A DNA stretch of 64,000 nt from Candidatus Nomurabacteria bacterium RIFOXYD2_FULL_35_12 (GCA_001786365.1 MFWK01000022.1:15087-79086); one strand, 5' to 3'; positions 14,240 through 59,980 are shown, numbered from the stretch's first letter. A program made the numbers and translations. The notes: generated from the sequence alone by a model not told the origin.

Positions 14240-14301
14240 ATGAGGATTATACTCTAAAAAAGAAAAAATCTAAAGAATTTTAAGCGTCGTGGGTTCCCTA
14301 A

Positions 14302-14811
14302 CTAATCGTCTTCGTAATCTCTATTTTTAGGTAAAGTAGGGTTTGGATTTGCTACAGGTGGAGTAGTTGGATTACTAGAACTAGTTGCTACTGTCTGATT
14401 TAAATCTCCTATATAATAAGCAGAGAGCAGAGCATGGGCAGAAGAAGAATGCGCCCCAGTGCCACCTCTATTTGCATAAATTGTCGTCGCATCGGTGCCA
14501 CAAGTCGGCAAAATAGCGCTGACACCTCCAGGGTGTTGGTTGAAATAAGAAGTAACATCATAGATTTTACCGGAAACAAGGAGCCAGCAACTCTGTCTTG
14601 AATTATGTTTTGTAAGTTAAGTTTTATTTAAGAGTAAACTAGAATTTCCAGATTTTGTGCCAGAAGTATTATTAAGATTATTATTTCCAAGAACATTTTC
14701 TCCATTTGTTATTGTTCCAGTATTTTGATTATATAAAATGAGCCCAGCCACGATAATGGCCACAGTCACTGCCCAGAAAATAAATAAAGACATCGTTACG
14801 TATTTTTTCAT
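14302..14811 (-). pseudogene. Secreted/membrane-anchored cytochrome-b5-like heme-binding domain protein interrupted by an in-frame TAA
   Basis: ORFs 14617..14811 (signal/TM MKKYVTMSLFIFWAVTVAIIVAGLILY plus an Asn/Thr/Gly-rich linker) and 14302..14511 are in the same frame, separated by a single TAA (14617..14619). Reading through the stop gives ...LVSGKIYDVTSYFNQHPGG..., the cytochrome b5 fingerprint, which starts upstream of the annotated TTG start of the second ORF. Confidence 0.45.
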
Positions 14812-14817
14812 AAAATT

Positions 14818-16125
14818 TTAAAGACTAAATTCTTCTGAATGAATTTTATTATTAATAAAACCTAAATTTATAAACTGTTCTCTTAAACTCTTCATAAACT
14901 TTTTAGGTCCGCATAAGAATATATCTATATTTATGTCCTCATTTTTTGAAACTAAACTTACAGAAATATAACTATCTTTTTCTGAAAGATATGGGTGAAA
15001 TTTAAAATTATTATTTTGCCTAGCTATTTGTTCAAATTCTATAGCGAAAGCCAACTCAGAAGTATTCTTTACACTATAATATAGGTCTATATTATAAGAA
15101 TTAAACTCTGCTTTTTTTGTATTAATCTGCCTCGCCATACTCAAAAATGGAGTGATGCCGATACCTCCAGCTATCCATATTTGCCTTTTTGACTCCCCTT
15201 TTAAATAAGAAAAAGAACCAAAAGGTCCTTCGATTGAGCAAGTAACTCCCGGCTTTAAAAGATAAATCATCGAAGTGTAGTCTCCTAATGTTTTTATACC
15301 TAAAGATAAATGATCATCACTAGGAGAAGATGTTATAGAAAATGGGTGAGATTCAGAAAGGATACCTTTTTCTTGGAATCTCAGAAAAACAAATTGTCCT
15401 GGTAGAAATCGCATTCTTTTACTCAATGATGAAAGTTTTAATTCCGCTATGTCATCATTTACTCTTATTATTTCTTCTAATTTATATTGATACTCATCCT
15501 TTTTATAAACTTGCAAAATAGTTCTGTAAATATAAGAACAGGCACCCAGCATTGCTAAAATTATCATGTAGTATTTTAATGTCGTATTGTTAGAAATGTC
15601 GCTAGGTATCAAAAACATATGCAGGCCACTTAAAAACAAAACAATTCCTAGATATTTGTGAGTATTTTTCCAATTTTCATATTTAAATTTTAAATAAAAA
15701 GTAATTACCATCAAAACAATAAATACAAGGATAGCAATTTTACCGAGGTTTAAAGCTAGATCTTGAAAAGAGAAAACAAAGAGAAAAGAAGCTTTCAGGG
15801 AGATAAATAAATATTGAATAATAAGAAAAACTGGGTGAAAAAGTATGAGGCAAAAAGCTAATGCTCCGATAGTGTGGTGTTTAATATAAACTCTATTCAG
15901 TCCATTGAATAATTTATCTAAAAATTTAAAACGAGCAGCTAAAATAAAATTAATGGAAAGTAGTGCCATACCTAAGAGTCCAGTTATCTGCCCGAGACTA
16001 CGAAATGTCATTCCAAATGAAGTAAACCTATCAGCTAGTGGCTTCATAAAAAGCCAAATGATTATAGGAATGATAGACAAAATTATAACGAGAATAAGAC
16101 CTGAATTATTTTTGAACAATTTCAT
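14818..16125 (-). CDS. Ferric-reductase/NADPH-oxidase-like flavocytochrome (TM bis-heme domain + FAD + NAD(P)H domains)
   Basis: 435 aa with six N-terminal TM helices. Paired His pattern HHTIGALAFCLILFHP / HKYLGIVLFLSGLH (bis-heme); FAD motif HPFSI; NAD(P)H motif GGIGITPF; C-terminal CGP. Confidence 0.7.
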   Translation of the reverse strand: MKLFKNNSGLILVIILSIIPIIIWLFMKPLADRFTSFGMTFRSLGQITGLLGMALLSINFILAARFKFLDKLFNGLNRVYIKHHTIGALAFCLILFHPVFLIIQYLFISLKASFLFVFSFQDLALNLGKIAILVFIVLMVITFYLKFKYENWKNTHKYLGIVLFLSGLHMFLIPSDISNNTTLKYYMIILAMLGACSYIYRTILQVYKKDEYQYKLEEIIRVNDDIAELKLSSLSKRMRFLPGQFVFLRFQEKGILSESHPFSITSSPSDDHLSLGIKTLGDYTSMIYLLKPGVTCSIEGPFGSFSYLKGESKRQIWIAGGIGITPFLSMARQINTKKAEFNSYNIDLYYSVKNTSELAFAIEFEQIARQNNNFKFHPYLSEKDSYISVSLVSKNEDINIDIFLCGPKKFMKSLREQFINLGFINNKIHSEEFSL

Positions 16126-16157
16126 AATTATGATTTTATTATATTAAAAACTTATTT

Positions 16158-17240
16158 TCAACTTAATTTATTATTTTTAATAAAAGTATTAATTGTCTTT
16201 TCTACTTGTTTAGAATTTTCAGTTTCCATTAATTTTATTCGAAGCTCTTTTGCACCATCAAAACCGTTCACGTAAGCTTTAAAATGTTTTTTCATCACAT
16301 CAAAACCTTTATGTTTTGGTTTAGCGAGTTCTTCATCAAAAATCTGTGTATGCTCTATTAGAACTTCAAGCTTTTCTTTAATGGAAGGAAGAACAGCATC
16401 AAAAGAGACTTGGGAGCGCGACGGCGCGAGCACGAGGAATTTTTCAGTAGAAAAATATCCGTGCTCTTCGGATGCTGTTCTTCCTGAAAAAAACCAAGGA
16501 TTTCCAAAAACTCCCCTGCCTATCATCACTCCATCACAGCCATACTCTCTAGCTTTATCTTCTGCATCTTTCAAACTCGCAACATCACCATTACCAATGA
16601 GTAAAATATCTTTACCACTCTTCTCTATGCATTTTTTAACTTTTTTAATAAGTTCCCAATTTGCCGGAACGAGTGAAAGTTCTTTTGTGGTTCTCAAATG
16701 AATCGTCAAAGCTGAAATGTCTTCTTTTAATAATTCAGGTATCCAATTATCTATATCTTCTTTATTAAAACCAACTCTCGTCTTCACTGACACAGGAGTA
16801 TTTAGGCCAGCTGATTTTATTCCCGCATGAGCCGACTGAATAATTTCTCGCGCAAGCTTCGGATTCTTTATCAAAGCCGAACCAGCTCCTTGGCTGATTA
16901 CTGATTTATCCGGACAGCCCATATTTATGTCTATGCCATCAAAACCAAGGCTCGCAATATACTGACAAGCCTTCTTCATATTTTCCAGATTAGCGCCAAA
17001 AACTTGCGCCACAATAGGCCTTTCACGTTCTTTATATTTTAAAATATGCGCTAGCTTTTTTCTGCCAAGCTTGTCCGCAAGGCCATCTGCAGCCACGAAC
17101 TCAGTCCAGAAAACAACTTTGTCTTTGTTTTCCCTATTCTTGCCATATTTTGCCAACATATAGCGAAAAGCGATATCAGTGACATCTGACATCGGCGCAA
17201 GGCAGAAGAAAGGTTTATCTAGTTTTGTCCAAAAATTCAT
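16158..17240 (-). CDS. dusB: tRNA-dihydrouridine synthase (Dus family)
   Basis: 360 aa. FFCLAPMSDVTD, DINMGCP, TIM-barrel FMN motifs. Confidence 0.8.
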   Translation of the reverse strand: MNFWTKLDKPFFCLAPMSDVTDIAFRYMLAKYGKNRENKDKVVFWTEFVAADGLADKLGRKKLAHILKYKERERPIVAQVFGANLENMKKACQYIASLGFDGIDINMGCPDKSVISQGAGSALIKNPKLAREIIQSAHAGIKSAGLNTPVSVKTRVGFNKEDIDNWIPELLKEDISALTIHLRTTKELSLVPANWELIKKVKKCIEKSGKDILLIGNGDVASLKDAEDKAREYGCDGVMIGRGVFGNPWFFSGRTASEEHGYFSTEKFLVLAPSRSQVSFDAVLPSIKEKLEVLIEHTQIFDEELAKPKHKGFDVMKKHFKAYVNGFDGAKELRIKLMETENSKQVEKTINTFIKNNKLS

Positions 17241-17253
17241 TGCTTTGAAAAAC

Positions 17254-17340
17254 TCGGGGGTAAAAAATTTCTTAAAACTGCGCCCTCGAGGTCATAAGGA
17301 CAGGGAACCCACACGTTTTTTAAAATTCTTTACCCCCGAG
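17254..17340. repeat. Family D 32-nt repeat core (17281..17312) inside an 87-nt extended hairpin (12-bp perfect outer stem CTCGGGGGTAAA/TTTACCCCCGAG)
   Basis: Core CGCCCTCGAGGTCATAAGGACAGGGAACCCAC recurs as a reverse complement at 59949..59980. A partial copy CGTGGGTTCCCT lies at 14287..14298. The outer flank inverted repeats are visible directly. Confidence 0.7.
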
Positions 17341-17344
17341 TTTC

Positions 17345-18199
17345 CTATCGAGTGAACTTGTAATATACCTTATTTCCGAACCTTAAATCAATATATTGTA
17401 ATAAGGTGTATTTATTCTTTAAATTAGACAAGAGAGGTTCTGTACTGATGGCTGACTCTAAATTTTCAGCCACATTTTTGAAATCAGAATCAATTTTAAA
17501 AATTAAATATGGTTCTTTTGATATTTTATTTTTAACGGAAAGGAATATTTTTACATCACCATTATTTAAAATATACAAAGAAATAGGCTTGAATCCCATT
17601 GTTACCAACACATCTTTAAAATCAACTAGTTGCTTAAAATTTTCCTTTGAGAAATAGTTTTCATTATCTACCGGACCATAAAACTTAAAATATACTTCTC
17701 CAGAGAAATATGGCGCTTCGTCAAAAATATAACCACTTTCATCCACAAAATAACACTTTTTATCAGAAGAAATTAAATCTTCCTTTACATTTCCACACCA
17801 TGTATACAATGCTTCCCTCTCAGTCAAAGATATTTCTAAAGTTTTTATGTTTTTTACACCAACACTGATGTCTTTGATTCTTTTAAAAGAATTTTCTAGA
17901 TTAGTTTTTATTATATTCTGTGGATAAAACAAAAAATTAGTCTTTGGGAAAAACCAGAAATAATTTCCCGCAAGCTCTTTGTCTACAATCTCTTTGATTA
18001 GTTTTGTTTCAATGGCCTTATTTCCATTTATCTCTATTTTATTTATATTTAAATTAGAATCACGAGAAATAAAAACAATAGAACCTAGAATAACTGCAAT
18101 TAAGAATAAAGAAATAAAAATTTTATATAAAAAAATTCTTCTTCGACGTTTTTTTAACTCCAAAAGACCGGGAGAATTTAAAATATATCTTTTTCGCAT
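17345..18199 (-). CDS. ftsQ: Cell division protein FtsQ/DivIB-like (TM anchor + POTRA)
   Basis: 284 aa. RRRRIFLYKIFISLFLIAVILGSIVFI TM anchor followed by a POTRA-like I..IEINGN...I region. Confidence 0.55.
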   Translation of the reverse strand: MRKRYILNSPGLLELKKRRRRIFLYKIFISLFLIAVILGSIVFISRDSNLNINKIEINGNKAIETKLIKEIVDKELAGNYFWFFPKTNFLFYPQNIIKTNLENSFKRIKDISVGVKNIKTLEISLTEREALYTWCGNVKEDLISSDKKCYFVDESGYIFDEAPYFSGEVYFKFYGPVDNENYFSKENFKQLVDFKDVLVTMGFKPISLYILNNGDVKIFLSVKNKISKEPYLIFKIDSDFKNVAENLESAISTEPLLSNLKNKYTLLQYIDLRFGNKVYYKFTR

Positions 18200-18228
18200 T
18201 CTATTTACTTTATAACTTTAAGAACTTT

Positions 18229-20468: not shown

Positions 20469-20584
20469 CCCGTTAGAAGTCGCGGTCGCGAATTTTATTT
20501 GGGATAATTGTATAAATTGTTTATTAAATTAATTAGCGGGGATAGGTTTTTCAAAAGAAAGACCGCGACCTGCTTCTAAGCGGG
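20469..20584. repeat. Family A MITE-like element, copy A1 (TIRs CCCGTTAGAAG...CTTCTAAGCGGG)
   Basis: cccgttagaagtcgcggtc at 20469.. and gaccgcgacctgcttctaagcggg at ..20584 are imperfect inverted repeats about 75 nt apart. The right end directly abuts the topA ATG (20585). Confidence 0.75.
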
Positions 20585-22870
20585 ATGAAATTATTAATTG
20601 TTGAGTCACCATCAAAAGCAAAAACAATCGAGAAATACTTGTCCGCCGATTCAGGGGCGGATCGAGATCATTTTACTGTGCGTGCATCGGTGGGACACAT
20701 TCGCGATTTACCGAAATCAAATAAAATAGCAATAGACATAGAAGCAGGCTTTGTCCCCCATTATGAAATTTCAAAAGGAAAAGAAAAAATTGTTCACGAA
20801 TTGCAAAGCTTGGCTGAAAAAGCGACTGAAATATTACTAGCGACAGACCCCGACCGTGAAGGAGAAGCTATCGCTTGGCATATAGAAACTCTTTTAAAGG
20901 CTGATAAAAAAGTGGAAGCTCCTATTAAGCGAGTGACTTTTCATGAAATCACCAAAGAAGCAGTTCTCGAAGCCATAGAACATCCTCGCAAGATTGATAC
21001 AGCCTTACGCAAAGCCCAAGAAGCGCGTAGAGTCTTGGATCGTCTTGTAGGCTATGACCTTTCTGGTTTAATTTGGAAAAAGGTTCGTTATGGACTTTCT
21101 GCCGGGCGTGTTCAATCCCCTGCGCTTCGCATAATCATGGAACGTGAGCGTGAGATACGAGCATTCGTGCCGGAAAAATTCTGGAAGCTTTTAGGATTAT
21201 TTGAAACTGTTAAAAAAGAAAAAATAACTTTAGAATGTTCAGAAGAACCAAGAGACAGAAAACTTGTAGACAAAATACTTGAAAATGGTAAAAAGGGAAC
21301 TTGGATAATTAACAACGTAAAAGAATCCGAACAGAAACGTTCCCCTCGCGCACCTTTTACTACTTCTACCTTGCAACAAACTGCTAGCTCTCGACTCGGC
21401 TACTCGCCTTCCCGCACAATGCAGATAGCGCAGAAACTTTATGAAGCCGGACATATCACATATATGCGAACCGATAGCACAAACCTTTCCGCTATAGCGC
21501 AAGGACAAATTGTTTCTTTTATTAAAAATAAATATGGAAAAGAATATGCAGAAGGAAGAATTTATAAAACTAAATCAAAAAATGCGCAGGAAGCCCATGA
21601 AGCAATTCGCCCTACACATATAGACAAACTTATCGCTGGGACTGAAGACCAAGATAGGTTATATAGATTAATATGGGAACGAGCTATTTCTTCCCAAATG
21701 ACTGACGCAAAGTTATTAAAAACAAAAATTTCTGCAATTATTAAAGATCACGAAGATTTACCAAACTTTTCTGCTAACGGCTCCCGTTTACTTTTCCCTG
21801 GATGGCTCAAAGTAGATGCTGATGCTCGTGGCGATGATGTAGAATTACCTAAATGTAATGTCGGAGAAGAATTAAAACTGATAAATCTTTCAAGTGAAGA
21901 AAAATTTACTGAACCTCCAGATAGATATAGCGAAGCAGGCCTTGTCAAAGAATTAGAAGCTAGAGGAATCGGAAGACCATCCACCTATGCGTCTATTATG
22001 AGAACAATAGAAGACAGGGGCTATGTAAACAAAGAAGGAAAAACATTATTCCCTACTGATGTTGGCGAAGTTGTTTCTGATTTCTTAGAAAAACATTTTA
22101 TGAATTACATCTCCGATAGCTTTACGGCAGAGATGGAAGATGAACTCGATGAAATCTCTCGAGGTGAACGTGAATATGAGAAAACATTGAAAGATTTCTA
22201 TGGACCATTCTTAAAAGATGTAAAATCAAAAGAAAAACTAGAAAAAGCTACAAATTTGGGTGATGCTCCAGAAAATATAAAATGTCCAAAATGTAGATCA
22301 ACTATGATTATAAAACTCTCACGCGGAGGGAAATTTTACTCTTGTTCAAAATATCCGGATTGTGATGGAGCCTTGATGCTCGATGGAACAGAATTAAAAG
22401 GACCAGAAGAAACTGGAGAAAAATGTCCTGAATGTGGCGACCCCGAAGGAAAACAAACTTCCAACGGGGCAGGGGAAAAAGGAAAATCTAAATCAAAAGG
22501 AGGTGTGTTAGTTATTAGACAGAGACGAGATGGCACCGGTACTTTTATTTCTTGCTCGCGTTATCCAAAATGTAAATTTATAAAAAGTGACAAAGCAGAC
22601 GAAGAAAAAAAGAAAACGGGTGTACTTTGCCCTATTTGTAAAACTGGAGACATCAGCGAGCGTCGTGGACGATTCGGAATTTTTTATTCCTGTTCAAATT
22701 ATCCAAAATGCAAATTTGCCATAAAAGCAAAACCAACAGGTAAAATATGTAAAGAATGCGGAAGCTTGATGATGGAAGGCACAAAAACCATTCCCGAAAG
22801 ATGCAGTAATAAATCTTGCCCTCAACACAATCCACATAAATTACTCAAGAAAGGTTTAAGCATTGAGTAA
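20585..22870 (+). CDS. topA: DNA topoisomerase I with C-terminal Cys4 zinc ribbons
   Basis: 761 aa. Toprim MKLLIVESPSKAKTIEKYL...TDPDREGE; at least four C-terminal CxxC...CxxC ribbons. Confidence 0.9.
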   Translation: MKLLIVESPSKAKTIEKYLSADSGADRDHFTVRASVGHIRDLPKSNKIAIDIEAGFVPHYEISKGKEKIVHELQSLAEKATEILLATDPDREGEAIAWHIETLLKADKKVEAPIKRVTFHEITKEAVLEAIEHPRKIDTALRKAQEARRVLDRLVGYDLSGLIWKKVRYGLSAGRVQSPALRIIMEREREIRAFVPEKFWKLLGLFETVKKEKITLECSEEPRDRKLVDKILENGKKGTWIINNVKESEQKRSPRAPFTTSTLQQTASSRLGYSPSRTMQIAQKLYEAGHITYMRTDSTNLSAIAQGQIVSFIKNKYGKEYAEGRIYKTKSKNAQEAHEAIRPTHIDKLIAGTEDQDRLYRLIWERAISSQMTDAKLLKTKISAIIKDHEDLPNFSANGSRLLFPGWLKVDADARGDDVELPKCNVGEELKLINLSSEEKFTEPPDRYSEAGLVKELEARGIGRPSTYASIMRTIEDRGYVNKEGKTLFPTDVGEVVSDFLEKHFMNYISDSFTAEMEDELDEISRGEREYEKTLKDFYGPFLKDVKSKEKLEKATNLGDAPENIKCPKCRSTMIIKLSRGGKFYSCSKYPDCDGALMLDGTELKGPEETGEKCPECGDPEGKQTSNGAGEKGKSKSKGGVLVIRQRRDGTGTFISCSRYPKCKFIKSDKADEEKKKTGVLCPICKTGDISERRGRFGIFYSCSNYPKCKFAIKAKPTGKICKECGSLMMEGTKTIPERCSNKSCPQHNPHKLLKKGLSIE

Positions 22871-24394: not shown

Positions 24395-24395
24395 A

Positions 24396-36169: not shown

Positions 36170-36186
36170 GGGATGCCCTTGGATTC

Positions 36187-40474: not shown

Positions 40475-40529
40475 AAAGTTATAAAGTTCTTAAGGTTGTA
40501 AAGTTTGAAAAATTAAATAGTTCTTAAGA

Positions 40530-41676: not shown

Positions 41677-41794
41677 CCCGTTTAGAAGCAGGTCGCGGTC
41701 AACAAACCTCGACTTTGCTTAGTTATGTTATTAAATTTTTTATCTTTTATAAACATGATTCTTATATAAAACTGCGACCGTGGCTTCTAACGGG
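41677..41794. repeat. Family A MITE-like element, copy A3
   Basis: CCCGTTTAGAAGCAGGTCGCGGTC...GCGACCGTGGCTTCTAACGGG. The left end directly abuts the mreB start codon (41676). Confidence 0.75.
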
Positions 41795-44856: not shown

Positions 44857-45861
44857 TTAACTTACACTTGCCATACCCGCACTGATTTCTGATATTTCCC
44901 TAGTAATGTTTCCCTGCCTTGCTTTATTGAACACCAGGGTCAGATCATCTATCATTTCTCCTGAAGCATCAGAAGCATTTTTCATTGCGACCATTCGACT
45001 CGACTGTTCAGAAGCATTTGATTCGAGCAACATTTGATAAATCTGCATCCTTGTAATCTTCTCCGCGAGTGACCCTATCAATGTGTTCATGTCTCCTTCT
45101 ATTAAATAACTTATACTTTTTTCTCTCCCGACGCTTTCGGTCGGGACTCCGACCTCTCCAGGCGTCGGAGCTAAATTGTTTATTAAATCTTGTAATTCTG
45201 TTTTAGATACAGGCAATATTTGTTTTATATTTGGCTTCTGATTTAAAGCGGAAATAAAATCAGTATAAGCTACTAAAACTTTATCGTAATGAAGAAGGAT
45301 ATATTCATCTATGGTAAATTTTGAAATTGGAACAACTTCTGTCAAAGAAATATTATTGCTCAAATCTGCAAAAGTGGCAACGACATTTACTCCGAGTCTG
45401 CGCATCGCCACATCTCCTTTTTTACCGACAGAAACAATATCTACCCCGTTAGAAGCAGGTCGCCCCGAGGTGACCGTAGCACTCTCGTGCTCGAGAGAGC
45501 GGCTTCTAACGGGGTCTAAATTTATGTTTTGACTTTTTAAAAATGAAATCGTTTTTTTAATAACTTGCGCATTATAAGATCCACACAAACCCCTGTTTGA
45601 TGTAATGAGCACAAGCAACACATTTGCTTTTACCCCACCTTTCTTTTCTCTTTCAGTAAAAAGTGGATGGGAATTCTCCTCTATATTTTTAGCTATTGAT
45701 GTAAGAACTTCCCACGAATATCCAGCATAAAGACGTGACGCCAAAGTAGAAGCCACCGCACGCTTCATCTTACTAGCAGCCACGAGCTCCATCGCTTTCG
45801 TGATTTTCTTTGTGTTCTTTACAGACTTTATGCGTCGTTTTATTTCTTTAGTTCCCGCCAT
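44857..45861 (-). CDS. atpG: F1 ATP synthase gamma subunit (with two in-frame repeat-element insertions)
   Basis: Conserved N-terminus MAGTKEIKRRIKSVKNTKKITKAMELVAASKMKRA at 45861 (the ORF track's upstream extension to 45954 is unlikely). Inserts encode LDPVRSRSLEHESATVTSGRPASNG (family A) and APTPGEVGVPTESVG (family B). Confidence 0.85.
   Translation of the reverse strand: MAGTKEIKRRIKSVKNTKKITKAMELVAASKMKRAVASTLASRLYAGYSWEVLTSIAKNIEENSHPLFTEREKKGGVKANVLLVLITSNRGLCGSYNAQVIKKTISFLKSQNINLDPVRSRSLEHESATVTSGRPASNGVDIVSVGKKGDVAMRRLGVNVVATFADLSNNISLTEVVPISKFTIDEYILLHYDKVLVAYTDFISALNQKPNIKQILPVSKTELQDLINNLAPTPGEVGVPTESVGREKSISYLIEGDMNTLIGSLAEKITRMQIYQMLLESNASEQSSRMVAMKNASDASGEMIDDLTLVFNKARQGNITREISEISAGMASVS
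45127..45168. repeat. Family B element, copy B2 (in-frame inside atpG)
   Basis: CCCGACGCTTTCGGTCGGGACTCCGACCTCTCCAGGCGTCGG. Same architecture and reading frame (A-P-T...VG..TE.VG) as B1 and B4. Confidence 0.75.
45444..45514. repeat. Family A element, copy A4 (in-frame inside atpG)
   Basis: CCCCGTTAGAAGCAGGTCGCCCCGAGGTGACCGTAGCACTCTCGTGCTCGAGAGAGCGGCTTCTAACGGGG. Termini match A1/A3, and the interior holds nested palindromes. Confidence 0.7.
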
Positions 45862-48290: not shown

Positions 48291-48326
48291 TGTTTTTATT
48301 TAAAAAAATTAAAATAGTTCTTTTTA

Positions 48327-48445
48327 AAAGCCTTGCGCAGGAGCTTAGAAAATAAAAATGGTATTCCATTTATTATTTTCTTGAGCGACGAGCAGTTCGC
48401 TGGCAAAGCTTTGCCAGATAGATTGCTTTTTAAAAGAAGCTATTT
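48327..48445. repeat. Family F ~120-bp repeat, copy F2 (between atpE and atpF)
   Basis: Same sequence as F1. Its central palindrome reads CTGGCAAAGCTTTGCCAG here. Confidence 0.8.
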
Positions 48446-50766: not shown

Positions 50767-50890
50767 AAAAACTGTTTAAAAAACTATAACAGAAAATATT
50801 GAGTAAAGCAAAATTCCCCTCACCCCTTGCTTTCCCCTCTCCATTTTAAAAATAAATGGAGAGGGGTTGGGGAGAGGAAAGAGATTAAAC

Positions 50891-50915
50891 AAAAAACCAC
50901 CCAAGGTGGTTTTTT
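50891..50915. terminator. Rho-independent terminator AAAAAACCACCCAAGGTGGTTTTTT (bidirectional)
   Basis: Perfect GC stem with A- and T-tracts, 3' of the RRM-protein gene. Confidence 0.7.
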
Positions 50916-50940
50916 GTTTAATCTGAAATCTAAATTTAAA

Positions 50941-52748: not shown

Positions 52749-54158
52749 TTAAAGCAAATCTATATCAGCTTGAATTTTTAATTTCAATTTTTGAACGCTT
52801 CGGCTATAAGAACAAGAAGTTCCCGTGCCTTTTTTTACTGTTTCATATTTTTTTGTTTTTGTATTATATATTTGGTTAAGACCTGTTCCATAGTAACTGC
52901 AAGCTGCTTTGTTTTGCTTACTAGTGCTCGTGCCCACTGCTCCAAGATCTGATAAAAACATTCCTGAAGCCATAAATGCATCTCTCGGAGCCCACGGATT
53001 GGCAACAGAACCCAAAACATCTTTCAGACGACTAGCAAAAATCTTCCAAGTAGAAGGAATAAATTGTGCCGGCCCCATAGCCCCGCCATAGCCTTTTATA
53101 TTTGCCACCGGACAAGAAACAGCAGTTTTATAAGCATTAAATCCCAGCTCCACAGTCATACTCAAAAATACCGGAACATCACGCGTAGGATTCATCACAT
53201 TTGCAAAAACTTTTCCAGTATTTTTACCGACGCCAGCCCCTGTATCAGGATTCGTCAGATAACACTGCCCGACATTTGCGCCAAGGCTGGACTCTTGAGT
53301 TAAAATCGCCAACAAAAATGCCGGATCAACTCCTAATTTACTTTTTACTTCATTTGCATATTGCAACGCTGTTCCGAAATCAATTTTTTGCGAAATACCG
53401 GCAAGACTAAAAAGAGCACTGCGAATTTTATTTGCTTGAACTTTTTTTGCATCTGCTAATTTTTGATATTCTGCCTCTTTATTTTTTGAAATAGATAAAA
53501 GTTGTTTTTTCTCTGCTTCGGATTTCGCCACAGTTTTCTGAGCACTTTCTAACTCAGCTTTTGCATCAAGTTCGGCACTTTGTTTATTTTCTAAATCTTT
53601 TTTTGCAACTTCAGTTTGTGTTTTGGCTCCATTGACTATATCAATCGAAGATTTTACAGCTTGCTTTATCGAAGTGTAAGATTCTAAATCACTATAAAAA
53701 TCTGAAACGCTTTTATTTGAAAGAATTAAACTGACTAAATTCCCATCATCAAATTCATTTGTATTTCTGAGCAATTGAGCTAAAGATTCATGTTCACGCT
53801 CTATCTTGTCGGAAAGTGATTTGATGGTATTAACTTTTTCAGTAATATTTACTTTTAATTGAGCTATTGTGAGAGCTCTGGCTTTTATTTTTGCTTTTAA
53901 TGTATTTATCTTGCTAGTTAGATAATCCACATCCCCTTTCAAAGTTCCAGAAGTTTTTTGTTGCTCTTTTTGTTGTTCCAATAAAGCTGAAAGCTGAGCT
54001 TCTATCTGAGAAAGTTCATTTTGGCAATAATCTTTATCGGACTGAGCGGAAGATACTGTAAGCGTCAAACAATCAAAAACAGCATATGTTTTATGCCCTG
54101 AAAGACTAAAAAATAAAGATATTATAAAAATAAAAGCTATGACTGCGTTTCTCGTCAT
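52749..54158 (-). CDS. Secreted coiled-coil protein with C-terminal lytic-transglycosylase-like (SLT) domain
   Basis: 469 aa. Signal peptide MTRNAVIAFIFIISLFFSLSGHKTYA, ~250 aa coiled coil, then AFLLAILTQESSLGANVGQ (the E-S catalytic context of SLT domains). Confidence 0.45.
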   Translation of the reverse strand: MTRNAVIAFIFIISLFFSLSGHKTYAVFDCLTLTVSSAQSDKDYCQNELSQIEAQLSALLEQQKEQQKTSGTLKGDVDYLTSKINTLKAKIKARALTIAQLKVNITEKVNTIKSLSDKIEREHESLAQLLRNTNEFDDGNLVSLILSNKSVSDFYSDLESYTSIKQAVKSSIDIVNGAKTQTEVAKKDLENKQSAELDAKAELESAQKTVAKSEAEKKQLLSISKNKEAEYQKLADAKKVQANKIRSALFSLAGISQKIDFGTALQYANEVKSKLGVDPAFLLAILTQESSLGANVGQCYLTNPDTGAGVGKNTGKVFANVMNPTRDVPVFLSMTVELGFNAYKTAVSCPVANIKGYGGAMGPAQFIPSTWKIFASRLKDVLGSVANPWAPRDAFMASGMFLSDLGAVGTSTSKQNKAACSYYGTGLNQIYNTKTKKYETVKKGTGTSCSYSRSVQKLKLKIQADIDLL

Positions 54159-54190
54159 AGCTTTTATTATACCATAATTTTATAAAATTT

Positions 54191-54916
54191 TTACTTCTTT
54201 TCTGCCTTCTTTTCCCCGCCTGCAACGCTATGCGCAGCATTGCGGGCAGGTTCTTTAGCTGGTGTGGTGGTGGCTGGTTCTGCTCCAGGCACTCCTTCTT
54301 CTTCTTTCTTGCCTTTCTTCTCTACTTCAATAGCGGACAAATCAGGAGCAACTACGACTTCTTCTTTTTCTTCAACTTGAGCAACGACAGAAGCTACGAC
54401 ATCGCCTGTATTTGTGATGACGACGACTCCGGATGGCAATTTTATATCAGAAACGAAAACGTTATTATCCAAGGTTTCAAGTTTTGAAATATCTACAACT
54501 AAATTGTGCGGTAAATCTGCAGGCAAAGCTTCGATTTCTATTTCATGAAGAACTTTCACAAGATTTCCAATACCACTCTTTACCGCATTTGAAATACCTT
54601 CGAATACAAGAGGAACCTTGACTCGAATTTTCTTTTTCATATCAATAACCAAAAAATCCACATGGATTGGCTCATCGGTGACTGGGTCTACTTGCACTTC
54701 ATGAATAAGAGCATTCACATCGCCAGCAGGAGTAGAAATCTTGATAGCAGAAGACTCTCCGGCATCTCGCCAGATTTTCTTGAATTCAACGATAGAAAGT
54801 GTTACAGATGTGGTCTTTTCCCCTGCTCCGTAAAAAACAGCTGGGATTTTCCCAGACTTTCTCAAAACACCCAATTTTGTATCTAAATCTCTTTTATCAG
54901 CTTTAATTACAAACAT
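54191..54916 (-). CDS. rplY: 50S ribosomal protein L25 / general stress protein Ctc (with C-terminal repeat-containing tail)
   Basis: Conserved start MFVIKADKRDLDTKLGVLRKSGKIPAVFYG at 54916 (the ORF track's 54976 start is probably too far upstream). The C-terminal tail ...EPARNAAHSVAGGEKKAEKK is encoded by the family C element. Confidence 0.75.
   Translation of the reverse strand: MFVIKADKRDLDTKLGVLRKSGKIPAVFYGAGEKTTSVTLSIVEFKKIWRDAGESSAIKISTPAGDVNALIHEVQVDPVTDEPIHVDFLVIDMKKKIRVKVPLVFEGISNAVKSGIGNLVKVLHEIEIEALPADLPHNLVVDISKLETLDNNVFVSDIKLPSGVVVITNTGDVVASVVAQVEEKEEVVVAPDLSAIEVEKKGKKEEEGVPGAEPATTTPAKEPARNAAHSVAGGEKKAEKK
54214..54250. repeat. Family C element, copy C2 (in-frame at 3' end of rplY)
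   Basis: CCCCGCCTGCAACGCTATGCGCAGCATTGCGGGCAGG: 35 of 37 positions identical to C1, same frame (PARNA.HSVAGGE). Confidence 0.7.
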
Positions 54917-55045: not shown

Positions 55046-56044
55046 CTATTTATATTTCCCAATAGATGCCAGGCTATTATTTTGAGCAGATTGCAAGAGA
55101 AGCTCTTGCGCACCTGATACATCATTTGGATTCTTTGCCCAAGATTTAAAAGCAGGATTTTGAATCGCTCGGCCATAAGAAAATGAAAGTGGCCAAGGAA
55201 GAAAATTATTCTTATGCATTGCATTCAAATTCATTGTCGCCTCGAGATCGAACTGCCCACCGGAGAGAAAAACAATTCCACCGATATCCTCCGGCACATG
55301 TTCCTTTAAACATCTCAAAGTTATTTCGGCTACTTTTTCCGGAGAAGATTTTTCTTTTGATTCTTTTCCAGAAATAACCATGCTGGTTTTCAAAATCATC
55401 CCCGGTAAGAAAACATTCGCATCTTTAAGCTTGGCAAAAACCATTTCCAGATTGCGAGCAGTCACTTGATAGCATTTTTCTAAAGTATGATTTCCATCTA
55501 TTAAAATTTCTGGTTCAACGATTGGTACAATGTCATTTTCTTGGCACAATATCGCATATTTTGCGAAAATTTCCGCATTTACTTTCATACAATCAAAGCT
55601 AGGAATATGCACACCTATAGTATAAACTGCGCGCCATTTTGCAAAAGTCGCGCCGAGTTTCTTATACTCTTTTAACCTCTCACTTAAACCTTCTAAGCCT
55701 TTAGTTATTTTTTCTCCATCATGATTCGAAAAATCTGTAGTGCCAGCATCAACTTTTATTCCAATTTCTATTCCTTTTGAATTTAAAATTGAAACAAAAC
55801 TTTTCCCATCAACGGTTTTTTGTTTTATTGTTTCATCAAAAAGGATATAACCGGAAATATACTTTTCTATCTTTGGCGCGGTAATAAGAAGTTCACGATA
55901 CTCTCTGCGTTTTTCCTCTGTATTTGGGACACCAAGCTTTAGAAAACGTCCAGCACTCGTATTTAAACTCTCATCAATGGCAAGTATCCCTTTTGGTATC
56001 TTCATCAAACGAGCAACTGTTTTGGTGAGAATTTTTTTATTCAT
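55046..56044 (-). CDS. fba: Fructose-bisphosphate aldolase, class I
   Basis: 332 aa. GILAIDESLNTSAGRFLKLGV...EKRREYRELL matches class I (Schiff-base) FBA. Confidence 0.8.
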   Translation of the reverse strand: MNKKILTKTVARLMKIPKGILAIDESLNTSAGRFLKLGVPNTEEKRREYRELLITAPKIEKYISGYILFDETIKQKTVDGKSFVSILNSKGIEIGIKVDAGTTDFSNHDGEKITKGLEGLSERLKEYKKLGATFAKWRAVYTIGVHIPSFDCMKVNAEIFAKYAILCQENDIVPIVEPEILIDGNHTLEKCYQVTARNLEMVFAKLKDANVFLPGMILKTSMVISGKESKEKSSPEKVAEITLRCLKEHVPEDIGGIVFLSGGQFDLEATMNLNAMHKNNFLPWPLSFSYGRAIQNPAFKSWAKNPNDVSGAQELLLQSAQNNSLASIGKYK

Positions 56045-56126
56045 CCCGTTAGAAATAGGAAATGCTTTGCATTTCCATTGTTATATTACTTTTAATAAAA
56101 ATTTTAACCATATGATTTCTAACGGG
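56045..56126. repeat. Family A MITE-like element, copy A5
   Basis: TIRs CCCGTTAGAAAT / ATTTCTAACGGG, with an internal palindrome GGAAATGCTTTGCATTTCC. The left end abuts the fba start codon (56044). Confidence 0.75.
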
Positions 56127-56135
56127 ATTCATTAA

Positions 56136-57650
56136 TTATTTAAGTAAATCTATTAAGACCTGTTTTGTCACAGCCGGATTTGCAGAACCTTTTGTTTCTT
56201 TCATTATCTGACCGACGAGAGACATGAGTGCCTGTTCTTTACCACCCTTGTAGTCAGCAACAACTTTCGGACTAGCGTCAATAATCTTTTTTGCAATTTC
56301 TTTCAACGCTCCAGTATCGCTACTCTGAAGAAGGTTTTTCTCTGTCGCGATTTTCATCGGTGATTCATCTTTGCTATTAGTTTTTTTTGCAATCATCGCT
56401 AAAATATCTTTTGCCACGCGAGAAGAAATTTTATTTTCTGAAACAAGATTTATTAATTCTGCAAAATTTCCAACAGACGGCAGTTTTACCTCGCTTTTTG
56501 CTCTGAGTCCTATAAAATCTGTCGTAACATAATTAGACGCTATCTTTATTTGATCCTTATTTTTCAAAATTTTAGCCACTTCTTCAAACCAAGCTCCCAA
56601 ACTAGGCTCATTTATATAGCTTTCTATGTCTTCATCTTTTATTCCAAAATCTTTCTTGTATCTTGCACGTTTTGCCTGTGGAAGTTCTGGTAATTCTTTT
56701 TCAATTTTTTCTAAGTCAAATGCTTCGTGTAATTTCATCTTTGGCAAATCGGGTTCTGGAAAATATCTATAGTCTGCGCTTCCCTCTTTTTTTCTCTGAG
56801 AAAAAGTTTTTTGTTTACCATCATCCCAACCTCGAGTTTCCTGCACTATTTCTGAGCCTTTGCCTTCTTCTACTAATTTTATCATCCGATCGACTTCGTA
56901 TTTTATAGCTCGTTCAACGCTTCGGAAAGAATTTAAATTCTTTACTTCTACTTTTGTGCCTAATTTTTTTAGATCCGTAGAAACAGAAATGTTTGCTTCC
57001 ACGCGCATTTCACCTTTCTCCATATTCGCTTCGGAAACTCCAAGATACCAAAGTATAAGCTGGAGTTCTTTGGCAAATTTTGTCGAGCCTTTTGCCGCTT
57101 CTTCATCACTTTGAAAAGTTGTCGCTTCTGTCACAAGCTCCATCAAAGGTATACCTGCTCTGTTAAAGTCTACTAAACTATATCCGCCACGGTCACCTGC
57201 CCCGTACCGAGCTTGCTCTGGTTCGGGGTGCTTGTTGTTTGCTGTGTCTTCTTCCAAATGCACGCGAGTTATGTCAAAATCTGCCAAATGTCCACCAGAA
57301 ACTATTGGAAATTTATATTGAGAAATCTGATAACCTTTTGGAATATCCGGATAAAAATAATTCTTACGATCAAATTCCGTAAAGTCCGCAATTTTTCCAT
57401 CTACCGCCAAGCCGACTTTTATAACATTTTCTATCGCTTTTTTATTTATAACTGGCAAAGCTCCCGGATGCGCCATGCAAACTGGGCAGACATTTACGTT
57501 TGGCTTTTCTTCATCTGGGTCATTCTTGCAACCACAAAACATTTTTGTATTTGTCGAAAGTTCCGCATGTATTTCTAAACCAATTGTCGGGTAATACTTT
57601 TTTTCCATTATTAAAATAATAGCATATTTATAAAATATAATGAATTCCAC
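56136..57650 (-). CDS. gatB: Asp-tRNA(Asn)/Glu-tRNA(Gln) amidotransferase subunit B
   Basis: 504 aa. YYPTIGLEIHAELSTNTKMFCGC... C-terminal YqeY-like domain. Confidence 0.9.
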   Translation of the reverse strand: MEFIIFYKYAIILIMEKKYYPTIGLEIHAELSTNTKMFCGCKNDPDEEKPNVNVCPVCMAHPGALPVINKKAIENVIKVGLAVDGKIADFTEFDRKNYFYPDIPKGYQISQYKFPIVSGGHLADFDITRVHLEEDTANNKHPEPEQARYGAGDRGGYSLVDFNRAGIPLMELVTEATTFQSDEEAAKGSTKFAKELQLILWYLGVSEANMEKGEMRVEANISVSTDLKKLGTKVEVKNLNSFRSVERAIKYEVDRMIKLVEEGKGSEIVQETRGWDDGKQKTFSQRKKEGSADYRYFPEPDLPKMKLHEAFDLEKIEKELPELPQAKRARYKKDFGIKDEDIESYINEPSLGAWFEEVAKILKNKDQIKIASNYVTTDFIGLRAKSEVKLPSVGNFAELINLVSENKISSRVAKDILAMIAKKTNSKDESPMKIATEKNLLQSSDTGALKEIAKKIIDASPKVVADYKGGKEQALMSLVGQIMKETKGSANPAVTKQVLIDLLK

Positions 57651-57670
57651 AAATATAGATTGTTAATTTA

Positions 57671-57710
57671 TCTACCATCTAGAACATATGTAAAAGTTAG
57701 TAGAAATAAT
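57671..57710. promoter_or_regulatory. Promoter-like ~30-bp motif (TTTACA-N17-ATAAAT on minus strand), copy 1, upstream of gatB
   Basis: TAGAACATATGTAAAAGTTAGTAGAAATAAT is repeated directly (2 mismatches) at 58315..58353. On the minus strand it reads TTTCTACTAACTTTTACATATGTTCTA and lies ~35-60 nt 5' of the gatB ATG. Confidence 0.4.
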
Positions 57711-57715
57711 ATAAC

Positions 57716-58285
57716 TTAACTTTTTGATTTCAAAGTTCCATTTTTTGTAACTTCCAAGATTTCCACATAATCTAAAATGCCTAGCTTGCTTAAATCAGTA
57801 ATAAATCTTTCAGGTAGCTCTACCTTGCCCACCCAAACACTCTTGTGAACTAAATTAAAATCAAGCATTTGCAACATACCTCTTAAAATATTTCTCTCTC
57901 TATTGAAAGAAACTGGGATATCATAACTAATTACCACAACCTTATTTCCTAATTTTGATTTATATAAATCCTTATTTAAGGAAAAAGAATTTTGAAAATT
58001 ATTTAATTTATGTTTTCCTTTTTCGCTCAAATAAATTTGATTTAAGTCATTTTTAAAAATCAACCCTTCACTTTTTAATTTGGACAAATATTTTTTTAAC
58101 TTATCCATTTTCTGTTTGTCTAATTGTAAATTTATTCTTTTGTTTTGTATTTTTGAAAACTCGTATCTTATTTTATTACTCGTTGCGCCATATCCTGCTT
58201 GTAAAAAAGAATTTGCAAAATCAACATAATCAATCACTTCATCACCCAATAAATTAAAAATTTTATAAATAATTTCTCCTTTCAT
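57716..58285 (-). CDS. Hypothetical protein (flanked by the 30-bp direct repeats)
   Basis: 189 aa, no recognisable motif. Confidence 0.3.
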   Translation of the reverse strand: MKGEIIYKIFNLLGDEVIDYVDFANSFLQAGYGATSNKIRYEFSKIQNKRINLQLDKQKMDKLKKYLSKLKSEGLIFKNDLNQIYLSEKGKHKLNNFQNSFSLNKDLYKSKLGNKVVVISYDIPVSFNRERNILRGMLQMLDFNLVHKSVWVGKVELPERFITDLSKLGILDYVEILEVTKNGTLKSKS

Positions 58286-58314
58286 GCCATATATTATACA
58301 TCATAATTAATATT

Positions 58315-58353
58315 CTACTAATTTAGACATATGTAAAAGATAGTAGAAAATAT
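58315..58353. promoter_or_regulatory. Promoter-like ~30-bp motif, copy 2, upstream of the 57716..58285 gene
   Basis: TAGACATATGTAAAAGATAGTAGAAAATAT, a direct repeat of 57671..57710. Confidence 0.4.
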
Positions 58354-58394
58354 TTAATTTATTTTTTAAAAAATTTAATTACATAAAAAGAAAA

Positions 58395-58422
58395 TCGCCC
58401 CGGCTGGAGTGTCGGGGCGACA
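58395..58422 (-). terminator. Rho-independent terminator (TCGCCCCG-loop-CGGGGCGA + T-tract on minus strand), preceded by a second hairpin CTCGC-GCAGG-GCGAG
   Basis: Inverted repeat TCGCCCCGGCTGGAGTGTCGGGGCGA. The minus-strand reading is followed by TTTTCTTTTT. Lies 3' of the 58455..58802 gene. Confidence 0.6.
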
Positions 58423-58454
58423 ATCTCCTCGCGCAGGGCGAGATACAACATGAT

Positions 58455-58802
58455 TCATGACTGAACATACAGAGCTCCTTTCTCAAGGAGACCAGGAAGC
58501 TCTTTTTTACAGCAGTAGCATCTGAAAGATGAGCCAGCTCGAATAGTGTTGAGATTTCCACATTCCGAACAAGCTTCGCACTCCTCCAGGAAAAGGATTG
58601 GGTATGTTTGCCAAGCGTTCAAGAACACCCCAACAAGTGCACGGTCTATGATGAAATAAAGTGACGCTTCAGGTATGAAGCCTTCCCTGTCCACTTCCTT
58701 CATCATTCGATCCCAAGCTACCTTGATACTTTCCTGCGCTAATCCCCACTCTCGCAAAAAGTATAACAGACTCATTGCGTGATATGACATAGGATACGAC
58801 AT
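58455..58802 (-). CDS. Hypothetical protein with C-terminal CxxC...CxxC motif, encoded in a GC-rich island
   Basis: 115 aa. ...EECEACSECGNLNTIRAGSSFRCYCCKKE... Local GC ~45-50%, own terminator. ORF 58379..58561 overlaps and is probably spurious. Confidence 0.35.
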   Translation of the reverse strand: MSYPMSYHAMSLLYFLREWGLAQESIKVAWDRMMKEVDREGFIPEASLYFIIDRALVGVFLNAWQTYPILFLEECEACSECGNLNTIRAGSSFRCYCCKKELPGLLEKGALYVQS

Positions 58803-58904
58803 AAAGTTTGCTCCTTCCGTATTTTGATTTAACTTGTGAACACCTAAACTAAAAAAGATTATATCACAAATATAAGAGGTTGTCTATAAAAATATGGGGA
58901 AAAT

Positions 58905-59915
58905 TTACGCTTTCTTTAGAATCTTTACTAACGAGTCACTGAATTTTTTTACCATTTTGTCATCAAACAGAGAAAGAATAAAAACGTTCTTGCTGATTTT
59001 TTTGAAATCTGCTACTTTTTTAGCGATAATTTTAGCATCATTAACAAAATCAGATTTAGTTAAAATAATTATTTCTTCTTTTACAGACAAACCTTCATTA
59101 CCCAAGCCCAAAGTCTTGTCGTATTTTTCCAATTCTTTCCGTATTTCTTTATAACTTTTCATCATACCAGTAGAACCTTTAGAAAGATTTTCAAAAGAAA
59201 TGAGGTGCGCAATCATTTTCGTTCGTTTAATATGACGCAAGAATTTCACACCGAGGCCCTTGCCTTCTGAAGCCCCTTCAATGAGCCCAGGAATGTCCGC
59301 AATGATGTAACCATGAAAATCCCCCAAGTTTGGATCGAGCGTAGTAAAAGGATAATCTCCAACTTTTGCATCTGCATTTGTCAGTGCATTTAATAAAGAA
59401 GATTTACCCGCATTTGGAAGTCCAATAAAACCAATATCAGCAAAAAGCTCCAGCTCTATTTTAAAATCTCCTTTTTCACCAGGCCCACCGACATTTGATT
59501 CTTGTGGAGTCGTATTTACGGAACTTTTAAAATGTTCATTTCCAAAACCACCGAAACCACCCCTCAAGAGAAGAATCTTTTCTCCTTCTTTCATTAATTG
59601 CCATTTTTCATCAGTTGCAAGATTTGTAATAATAGAGCCAACAGGTAATTCTAAAATAAAATCTTGCCCATTTGCTCCATGCAAGCTCTTGCTTCCGCCG
59701 TCTTCCCCTCTGCCAGCAATAAAACTTTTCTTGGCTTTATATTTTAAAAGTATGTGCACGTCGCGGACAGCTTGCACATAAAAATTCCCGCCTCGTCCGG
59801 CATCTCCTCCGGCCGGGCCACCTTTTGGCTCAAATTTCTGCCTGTGCCACCTGACAACACCGTTTCCACCGGCTCCAGCTTCTGCATATATTTTAATTTC
59901 ATCAATGAATGCCAT
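58905..59915 (-). CDS. obg: GTPase Obg/CgtA
   Basis: 336 aa. Obg fold MAFIDEIKIYAEAGAGGNGVVRWHRQKF...; G1 GLPNAGKSS; G3 DIPG. Confidence 0.9.
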   Translation of the reverse strand: MAFIDEIKIYAEAGAGGNGVVRWHRQKFEPKGGPAGGDAGRGGNFYVQAVRDVHILLKYKAKKSFIAGRGEDGGSKSLHGANGQDFILELPVGSIITNLATDEKWQLMKEGEKILLLRGGFGGFGNEHFKSSVNTTPQESNVGGPGEKGDFKIELELFADIGFIGLPNAGKSSLLNALTNADAKVGDYPFTTLDPNLGDFHGYIIADIPGLIEGASEGKGLGVKFLRHIKRTKMIAHLISFENLSKGSTGMMKSYKEIRKELEKYDKTLGLGNEGLSVKEEIIILTKSDFVNDAKIIAKKVADFKKISKNVFILSLFDDKMVKKFSDSLVKILKKA

Positions 59916-59948
59916 ATGAAAAGTATAAAAATGAAAAATTAAGGAGCC

Positions 59949-59980
59949 GTGGGTTCCCTGTCCTTATGACCTCGAGGGCG
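59949..59980. repeat. Family D 32-nt repeat, copy D2 (reverse orientation)
   Basis: GTGGGTTCCCTGTCCTTATGACCTCGAGGGCG is the exact reverse complement of 17281..17312. Confidence 0.7.

Follow-up and report, generated by a model that had tools for sequence, protein, structure and literature searches.

The stretch analyzed here, 64,000 nt of Candidatus Nomurabacteria bacterium RIFOXYD2_FULL_35_12 (GCA_001786365.1 MFWK01000022.1:15087-79086; hereafter the window, with positions counted from its first letter), has a GC content of about 34%, a steadily negative GC skew and the majority of its genes on the '-' strand. It carries a 32-mer, CGCCCTCGAGGTCATAAGGACAGGGAACCCAC, exactly at 17281-17312 (+), and the exact reverse complement lies at 59949-59980. 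These two copies in opposite orientation, first pointed out in an earlier note on this DNA, are confirmed as the two matches with at most three mismatches in the window, where 100 shuffles give none. Judged by sequence and predicted fold, the 32-mer is the apical domain of a dispersed foldback family of about 95 nt, apparently specific to Nomurabacteria/Paceibacterota, ultra-small groundwater bacteria of the Candidate Phyla Radiation (CPR). The copies have housekeeping genes for neighbours, for example obg, dnaX, dus and ftsQ (Table 1).

The earlier note placed the first 32-mer in an 87-nt structure closed by a perfect 12-bp stem and mentioned no hairpin around the second. The stem (CTCGGGGGTAAA/TTTACCCCCGAG, 17253-17264 and 17329-17340) is present, but it is only a portion of 29-nt arms (17250-17278 and 17315-17343) that are 86% complementary, within a unit of about 95 nt. 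The 32-mer of copy 2 is likewise apical in a long hairpin, with A/T-rich arms unlike those of copy 1 in sequence. Similarity between the two copies reaches 50 nt at 88%, and the conserved unit across the wider family is about 75 nt. Both hairpins are more stable than shuffled controls, and each folds better on the strand that reads GTGGG: copy 1 at -45.9 kcal/mol on '-' (z -5.6) versus -36.8 kcal/mol on '+', and copy 2 at -34.3 kcal/mol on '+' (z -3.7) versus -26.1 kcal/mol on '-'. The folded strand of copy 1 is thus sense to both neighbouring genes, which is the minority orientation in the family, and that of copy 2 has the majority orientation, antisense to both obg and the MYG1-family gene. 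The outer arm of copy 2 overlaps the start codon of obg and a TATACT box 6 nt upstream of that codon. The covariance model described below matches copy 1 at 17258-17335 (-) with 83.1 bits (E ~3e-17) and copy 2 at 59929-60002 (+) with 69.1 bits.

A 12-nt fragment at 14287-14298, also listed in the earlier note, is not a stray piece but the end of a 29-nt truncated copy, which nhmmer aligns to model positions 4-32 (E=1.6e-5). The truncated copy lies between the stop codon of a small upstream open reading frame (ORF) and the promoter and start of dnaX, and the same site carries full copies in two other genomes (L022 and L147).

Table 1. Coordinates of the hairpin copies in the window and of related features (helix P3, family D2, model R1 and the last motif are described in the text)
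Feature	Position	Strand	Remarks
Copy 1, full hairpin	17248..17345	-	between ftsQ-like gene (17345-18199, -) and dus (16158-17240, -); genes named by Pfam
Copy 1, apical core	17281..17312	-	GTGGGTTCCCTGTCCTTATGACCTCGAGGGCG read on '-'; the near-invariant columns of alignments A1, A2 and A4
Copy 2, full hairpin	59914..60017	+	between MYG1-family gene (60017-60916, -) and obg (58905-59915, -)
Copy 2, apical core	59949..59980	+	exact match
Truncated copy	14271..14299	+	29 nt: left arm AAAGAATTTTAAG, P3 left strand CGTC, first 11 core nt GTGGGTTCCCT
D2 copies	L013 4283-4357, L035 1145-1231, L040 6893-6967, L051 260-336		weak full-length R1 matches
D2 copies	L057 11165-11241, L072 5658-5734, L089 5554-5628		weak full-length R1 matches
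GACCGCGACCTGCTTCTAA/TTCTAACGGG motif	20561-20587, 41674-41700, 45433-45463		also upstream of ORFs starting 37902, 56044

Family size and distribution

An 18-mer of the core, searched in one-genome-per-species contigs, is found in 37 stretches, nearly all from metagenome-assembled genomes (MAGs) of Nomurabacteria, Paceibacterota or Parcubacteria, with several copies per genome. A 20-mer with two free positions occurs in more than 119 metagenome stretches, a few of which, in GC-rich contexts, are chance matches. A covariance model (R1) and an nhmmer profile were run over 167 genome and metagenome sequences (1.2 Mb) and gave 173 full-length matches, 134 of them distinct with their flanks, in Nomurabacteria/Paceibacterota genomes and groundwater metagenomes. 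Contigs encoding the Obg and Dus proteins of the window come from Rifle-aquifer and other groundwater metagenomes; one of them is a CPR MAG (GCA_000991105.1). Copies are solitary, with one per intergenic spacer and no tandem array as a CRISPR repeat would have. Local density can be high (three copies in 8 kb in L029, three in 11.3 kb in L100). Viral contigs gave 0 matches, and we therefore rejected a phage origin.

The earlier note was also right that the element fits no consensus of signal recognition particle (SRP) RNA, transfer-messenger RNA (tmRNA), RNase P RNA or tRNA. At gathering threshold, Rfam finds only four tRNAs in the window, all elsewhere, and no SRP RNA, tmRNA, RNase P RNA, 6S RNA or known ribozyme at the copies. 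When both copies are compared with the 4227 families of Rfam 15 at E<=10, the only matches are spurious ones to generic hairpins of the microRNA-precursor type. ARAGORN likewise reports only those four tRNAs, which disposes of a tRNA or tmRNA fragment. Literature searches turned up no description of the repeat; as far as searched, the family is an undescribed, lineage-specific, structured intergenic repeat.

Anatomy and covariation of the hairpin

Every copy consists of a single long, irregular hairpin (median length, 96 nt). A near-perfect outer stem, specific to the copy, is followed inward by a semi-conserved stem (AAAGAAUUU/AAAUUCUUU), an internal loop, a covarying helix of 5 bp (P3), and a GC-rich tip of 32-34 nt with fixed bulges (GGUY and UCCG) and a fixed loop (CUUAU). 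On the GTGGG strand, the unit passes from an outer arm of 10-16 nt through AAAGAATTT, TAAG and GAGTC (P3 left) to the core, GTGGGT(T/C)CCCTGTCCTTATGAC(TC/CT)CGAGGGCG, and from there through AA, GGCTC (P3 right), CAG and AAATTCTTT to the opposite outer arm. The A/T-rich stem made up of the outer arm and AAAGAATTT has a median of 23 near-perfect base pairs.

The paired positions covary strongly. P3 occurs as GAGUC/GGCUC, GCGUC/GGCGC, GAAAC/GUUUC, GAAAA/UUUUC and GUGUC/GGCAC. In alignment A4 (108 distinct sequences, fitted to the model), 93.5% of cells are paired compared with 82.0% in shuffles, 16 of the 28 pairs change on both sides, and none of 500 shuffles reaches the observed value on any measure; controls with slid partners have at most 59.6% of cells paired. 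The same picture emerges from an independent MAFFT alignment whose structure was drawn by hand, and mutual information recovers the P3 and stem pairs. Variation within the core is limited to GGGTT versus GGGTC, which are about equally frequent, a 3' bulge of TC or CT (110:21), and a subtype (GTGTTGG; 19 copies) that is longer by two U. In L051 and L143 an additional hairpin is inserted after GGGCG, differing in sequence between the two with pairing kept in both.

Several other interpretations of the conserved unit were tried and rejected. For the commonest subtype RNAfold predicts two hairpins, in which GAGUC pairs with a GACUC inside the core; this alternative is unsupported, as it is out of reach for the P3 variants GAAAA and GAAAC, whereas P3-left and P3-right covary. 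A pseudoknot is not indicated, as mutual information ties neither the GGUU/GGUC bulge nor the UC/CU swap to any other column. Frames for a small peptide are open on both strands by eye, but P3 subtypes shift or stop the frame and conservation is not codon-patterned. By eye the core, CUUAUGA...CGAA, recalls the CUGAUGA...GAAA of the hammerhead ribozyme, which has three helices and a non-G nucleotide at its cleavage site and finds no Rfam match here. The resemblance fails at essential hammerhead positions: by the hammerhead numbering, the equivalent of G5 is U, the nucleotide after the P3 strand is G, and helices I and II would be too short.

The strand that folds

Folding is strand-specific. 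Of 38 copies, 36 fold better on the GTGGG strand (mean -36.0 versus -28.8 kcal/mol), and in the conserved stems P2-P4 there are 97 G·U pairs on that strand versus 4 A·C. Isolated mismatches in the arms show the same asymmetry (71 G·T, 14 A·C and 27 transversions), as do the copy-specific outer arms alone (30, 9 and 20, respectively). A mutational strand bias could in principle create an excess of G·T. However, the ratio is 34:6 where the genes are antisense to the core and 9:0 where they are sense; the asymmetry tracks core orientation in both classes, and therefore it is not a by-product of transcription- or replication-linked mutation bias. These comparisons show the element to be constrained as a single strand of GTGGG polarity, which would be either RNA or single-stranded DNA (ssDNA).

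Genomic setting and orientation

The hairpin takes up the whole intergenic spacer. Its stem mostly has the upstream stop codon between 9 nt inside it and 15 nt outside it, and the next start codon is 0-27 nt, mostly 5-15 nt, from the other base of the hairpin. Of the copies with co-directional neighbours, 60 have the folded strand antisense to these genes and 13 have it sense (~82% antisense); the ORF-based classes for convergent cases include some miscalls. No U-tract follows the stem on either strand, with five or more T among the first 8 nt in 28/134 copies forward and 19/134 reverse, and T frequencies over those positions of 0.42 and 0.35, respectively. We therefore rejected a classical intrinsic (Rho-independent) terminator.

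A hairpin that runs from stop codon (mostly -9 to +15 nt) to start codon (mostly 0-15 nt) could act in cis on the sense strand of the operon mRNA, as an intercistronic hairpin for RNase III-type processing or 'punctuation', or in translational coupling, where a ribosome that stops at the end of the upstream gene would open the outer stem beside the downstream start codon. The palindromic stems form a long hairpin in either orientation, even the non-preferred strand averages -28.8 kcal/mol, and the downstream genes are without a Shine-Dalgarno motif. We nevertheless regard this explanation as improbable: in 82% of the co-directional cases the mRNA would bear the strand on which the conserved wobbles become A·C mismatches, the asymmetry tracks the orientation of the core and not of the genes, and a 32-nt invariant, non-palindromic tip is left unexplained.

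Another candidate that draws on the position of the hairpin is a regulatory cassette in double-stranded DNA, whose reverse strand would bear a sigma-70-like promoter (AGGACA, 16 or 18 nt, TAAAAT) and/or the site of a global regulator, the promoter aiming at the downstream gene in the majority orientation. A promoter scan does find AGGACA-18-TAAAAT at 17297-17326, with 9/12 matches. Outside the core no part is as conserved as AATTTTAAG, whose complement gives TAAAAT, and its partner arm varies more; the spacing stays at 16 or 18 nt in indel variants; TGnTAAAAT is a common -10 box before genes of the window; and in the majority orientation the next gene would be the target. Promoter matches are, however, at chance level in such A/T-rich DNA (46 found versus 41 expected), copies in the other orientation are equally conserved, and several downstream genes have a TATAAT box of their own 6-7 nt before ATG. 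Moreover, a promoter explains neither the strand-specific wobble bias nor the covariation of P3, which would tie its 'spacer' to sequence upstream of the '-35'. This explanation, too, has little probability in our estimation.

Most ORFs of the window (for example 11827, 14239, 19561, 41837, 54158, 58285 and 61565) have TATAAT or TAAAAT 6-7 nt before the ATG, often with TGn upstream, and Shine-Dalgarno motifs are essentially absent before its genes. This suggests that leaderless-type mRNAs are common in this organism. Leaderless-type expression matters here because a promoter for the antisense strand would overlap the start region of the neighbouring gene.

Gain, loss and exchange of spacers

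The spacer between the MYG1-family gene and obg is occupied in eight genomes. Its homologous arms have diverged without losing their pairing, more than one P3 subtype occurs, and the core has hardly changed; in two genomes (L014 and L020) the centre lies in the opposite orientation. The site downstream of ftsQ also appears to differ in orientation between species, being sense in the window and antisense in L026, L036, L057 and L162, where orthology was judged by the conserved C-terminal peptide of the upstream gene. Such flipping of the centre would come from recombination or template switching between the arms. No flipped pairs were seen among near-identical loci, of which only six pairs were compared.

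Whole units are also gained and lost. A search with paired flanks returned 52 matches in which the gap is much shorter than the hairpin, and clean empty sites exist in related genomes, with spacers down to 1-5 nt. In the single clean pair, L034 (filled) versus L128/L048 (empty), insertion and hairpin coincide, and neither a direct repeat nor a target-site duplication is present; the filled/empty junctions of L044, L157 and L103 are ambiguous in this respect. Partial alleles occur as well. Comparison of L105 with L029 reveals a loss of the centre between two retained arms, which we read as an internal deletion, and that of L055 with L136 an allele with the left arm only; the truncated copy of the window is a similar case that also retains P3-left and 11 nt of core. 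On an evolutionary time scale the element has the behaviour of a non-autonomous repeat, with presence or absence of the whole unit, flips of the centre and decay by internal deletion. Two origins of the arms were considered and rejected. Copying from the adjacent flank has one striking case (L019, a 9-nt repeat), but direct repeats between arm and flank show no excess over controls. Insertion into pre-existing terminator hairpins is contradicted by the clean empty sites L128, L048 and L103, which are without a palindrome.

Non-orthologous copies within one population share their outer arms and flanks, over a stretch from a block of stop codons in all three frames (TAATTATTAGTTAA, gene strand) to the A-rich leader before ATG; therefore, whole spacers can be duplicated or exchanged. 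Intergenic spacers in these genomes seem to be exchangeable cassettes of several types. As a separate observation, a spacer that holds the hairpin family in one genome holds tandem (A)AGTTATAAAGT-like repeats in another (L129, ~4930-4975), and a AGTTATAAAGT-like motif recurs upstream of the window ORFs starting at 18199, 40474 and 44820.

Two exact inverted 32-mers 42.6-42.7 kb apart, in an element whose centre can flip at a site over evolutionary time, raise the question put in the earlier note of whether the two full copies are recombination sites that bound an invertible segment of ~42.7 kb. They are, however, two of at least 134 distinct copies dispersed in both orientations, and their identity is limited to the 32-nt core, which is conserved family-wide and across species, while their arms differ. 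Contig L004 comes from another sample and matches window 55905-59938 at 100% identity, until the match breaks off sharply where the copy-2 arm has its inner end; beyond that point (L004 1-860) it holds unrelated small ORFs, which could be due to a strain rearrangement at the hairpin or to an assembly join. All other contigs with the obg or dus protein of the window keep the local arrangement, L004 itself diverges inside the hairpin arm into unrelated sequence and not into the flank of the other copy, and the six near-identical pairs include no flip. An invertible segment is thus very improbable, and we set this part of the earlier note aside.

Comparison with known repeats and RNA motifs

The family works like the intergenic palindromic repeats known from other bacteria (REP/BIME, ERIC and the Correia miniature inverted-repeat transposable elements, or MITEs) and resembles RNA motifs found by comparative genomics, while departing from each in the defining features that were tested. 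With the REP/BIME and ERIC elements of proteobacteria it shares the many copies in spacers, often in operons, the hairpins, the occurrence in both orientations and the presence or absence between related genomes. The arms of a REP palindrome are conserved, whereas here the arms are copy-specific and it is a 32-nt non-palindromic centre that is conserved, in a unit of ~95 nt. REPs are 20-40 nt long with a conserved GTAG or CGTC tag at one end (PMC3733652). By eye, no conserved tetranucleotide of this type is visible at the base of the hairpin in the listed flanks.

The 134 distinct, dispersed and non-coding copies with presence/absence polymorphism are reminiscent of MITEs. The Correia/NEMIS MITEs of Neisseria are non-coding intergenic units of ~100 nt, whose inverted-repeat ends fold into long RNA hairpins around an asymmetric conserved centre and which can carry promoter-like hexamers. 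The hairpin family matches them in length, intergenic position, mobile-like behaviour, hairpin formation, asymmetric conserved centre and promoter-like hexamers. MITEs, however, come with a target-site duplication and have terminal inverted repeats conserved throughout the family. The outer arms of the hairpin family are not shared between copies, with only the inner AAAGAATTT/AAATTCTTT semi-conserved, conservation rises gradually towards the centre, and the one clean filled/empty pair is without a duplication. The guess of the earlier note, 'another MITE family or a small RNA', therefore anticipated a real structured repeat family and brackets the two readings that survive, although the shared termini and duplication of a MITE were not found.

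The attC sites of integrons (for example the Vibrio VCRs) are imperfect hairpins that fill the spacers between co-directional ORFs, with one functional folded strand that is antisense to the ORFs. In their case the outer R and L boxes (RYYYAAC...GTTRRRY) are conserved and the centre is variable, and the sites form a single array next to an integrase, flanking cassette genes. The hairpin family likewise fills the spacers of co-directional ORFs with a mostly antisense folded strand, but has a conserved centre and variable ends, in copies dispersed among housekeeping genes. Its variable closing stem, invariant unpaired nucleotides, optional junction hairpin, G·U covariation and many copies per genome are also features of candidate non-coding RNAs and small self-cleaving ribozymes; unlike the RNA motifs of the Rfam type, it matches none of the 4227 families beyond generic hairpins, at E up to 10.

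The nature of the folded strand

Our tentative preference is for a structured hairpin-RNA module with a MITE- or REP-like pattern of gain and loss and a presumed function as RNA. RNA is favoured because the covariation tolerates G·U, the bulges and loops are fixed, and an optional extra helix covaries. On this reading the GTGGG strand would most likely be a stable hairpin RNA. A conserved partner, either a protein or a nuclease, would dock at the invariant tip, and the stem of ~23 bp or more would serve as a double-stranded-RNA substrate. A stable hairpin inside an operon mRNA would be disruptive, and surviving copies would then be mostly antisense to their neighbours; we propose that the antisense bias exists because of selection against such structure inside operon mRNAs.

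Several points weigh against this RNA. The folding signatures from which we infer it would be given by ssDNA too. Alignment A4 was fitted to the model, so that its counts are biased towards the structure; many of the G·U pairs in these related sequences were inherited and did not arise independently; and the core helices CCCU/AGGG and GUC/GAC are almost invariant, so that covariation neither supports nor refutes them and they remain predictions. Because the hairpin fills the spacer in the majority orientation, a promoter for the GTGGG strand would lie inside the 5' end of the neighbouring gene; this lack of room for a promoter is the chief weakness of the RNA reading, besides the expression that it presumes. 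A hairpin without a U-tract is also one without an obvious 3'-end signal.

The alternative is a repeat that acts at the level of ssDNA, in which an HUH-type transposase, a RAYT-like enzyme or a recombinase would recognize the GTGGG-strand hairpin, either in an intermediate of transposition or at the replication fork; the element would be selfish or domesticated DNA. We consider this less likely, but it would account for the orientation bias, the missing duplication and the turnover. Its analogues would be REP/BIME, the PATEs derived from IS200/IS605, and integron attC sites, in which the bottom strand folds. Folding is strand-specific, and DNA hairpins tolerate G·T as well; the orientation is strongly biased relative to co-directional genes and so probably relative to replication; the GC skew of the window is negative, with genes on '-'. 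IS200/IS605 and REP elements are likewise free of target-site duplications, as is the clean pair L034 versus L128/L048, paralogous copies have arms and flanks in common, and the same genomes hold several unrelated families with the same closing-stem architecture. On the other hand, if genes are co-oriented with replication, most folded strands would be on the leading-strand template, whereas chemistry of the IS200/IS605 type uses the lagging-strand template. A conserved centre with variable ends is the reverse of the anatomy of REP, PATE and attC. Occupation of orthologous sites across species, with compensated changes in the arms, looks like long-term constraint and not recent spread. Finally, the viral contigs are without any copy, and no candidate enzyme was identified, although no search was aimed at one.

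Other repeats and hairpins in these genomes

A second structured family, of ~130-140 nt, has three copies in the window, at 40508-40648 and 48305-48445 (+) and as a reverse complement at 61394-61525, with a mean column identity of 86%. It shows compensatory changes in an internal hairpin (GGCGAAGCTTCGCC, GGCAAAGCTTTGCC and GGGCAAGCTTGCCC) and has an A/T-rich closing stem; no Rfam family matches it at gathering threshold. The first two copies fold at -53.9 and -50.6 kcal/mol on '+', compared with -38.6 and -43.9 kcal/mol on '-', and their flanking genes are on '-', so that for two of the three window copies the more stable fold is the one antisense to the neighbouring genes. A sister family, D2, has the architecture of the 32-mer hairpin with another GC-rich tip (AATTTT..CCCGAGGGTCCC-[variable covarying hairpin]-GAAGGGCGCAGGGAC..AAAATT). 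D2 usually lies on the same strand as the copy of the 32-mer hairpin family in its contig, and Rfam holds no relevant match for it. The occurrence of the same stem-closed architecture in two further families of these genomes, with the antisense fold of two copies of the 130-nt family, suggests a broader phenomenon.

A motif, GACCGCGACCTGCTTCTAA(G/A)CGGG or ...TTCTAACGGG, stands directly before the ATG of genes 20585, 40663-41676, 37351-37902 and 55046-56044, and hairpins related to it are found at 45436-45522 and 56036-56135; it may be another leader or repeat family. A GC-rich repeat of 47 nt, TTTCCCCGCCTGCAACGC..GCGGGCAGGTTTTTTA, occurs at 36720-36766 and 54211-54257 (94% identical), inside or at the end of '-' ORFs, and on '+' it looks like a hairpin followed by a T-run. 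A tRNA-Gln (12320-12392, -) lies within 32-nt inverted repeats (12298-12329 and 12386-12417, 75% complementary) that extend its acceptor stem into the flanks. In or beside spacers there are also 'empty' perfect or near-perfect hairpins at 50882-50924 (20 bp, 3-nt loop), 54129-54168 (15 bp, 10-nt loop) and 36145-36180 (16 bp, 4-nt loop); in that at 54129-54168, the start codon region of gene 52749-54158 pairs with the gene's own first codons.

Implications

A bolder version of the RNA reading, to which we give little credence, is that the invariant apical domain represents a new functional class of RNA carried on a mobile hairpin, and that together with at least two sister families of like architecture it makes up a genome-wide system of intergenic 'punctuation' in Nomurabacteria. 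The tip could then cleave itself, as a small ribozyme, or be where a ribonucleoprotein or nuclease specific to the CPR docks. Its targets would be transcripts that run antisense to operons; alternatively, it would be a signal in the template DNA strand, extruded as a hairpin.

The CPR/Patescibacteria have tiny, streamlined genomes with very few characterized non-coding elements, and in some contigs the hairpin family reaches a density of up to one copy per 3-4 kb. Its evolutionary mode is unusual: arms are copy-specific yet paired, centres flip, and whole spacers act as exchangeable cassettes. Covariance model R1 is a ready probe for metatranscriptomes and for the annotation of Nomurabacteria genomes. 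Whatever reads the GTGGG strand is likely to be a conserved, so far unrecognized part of gene expression or genome maintenance in this lineage.

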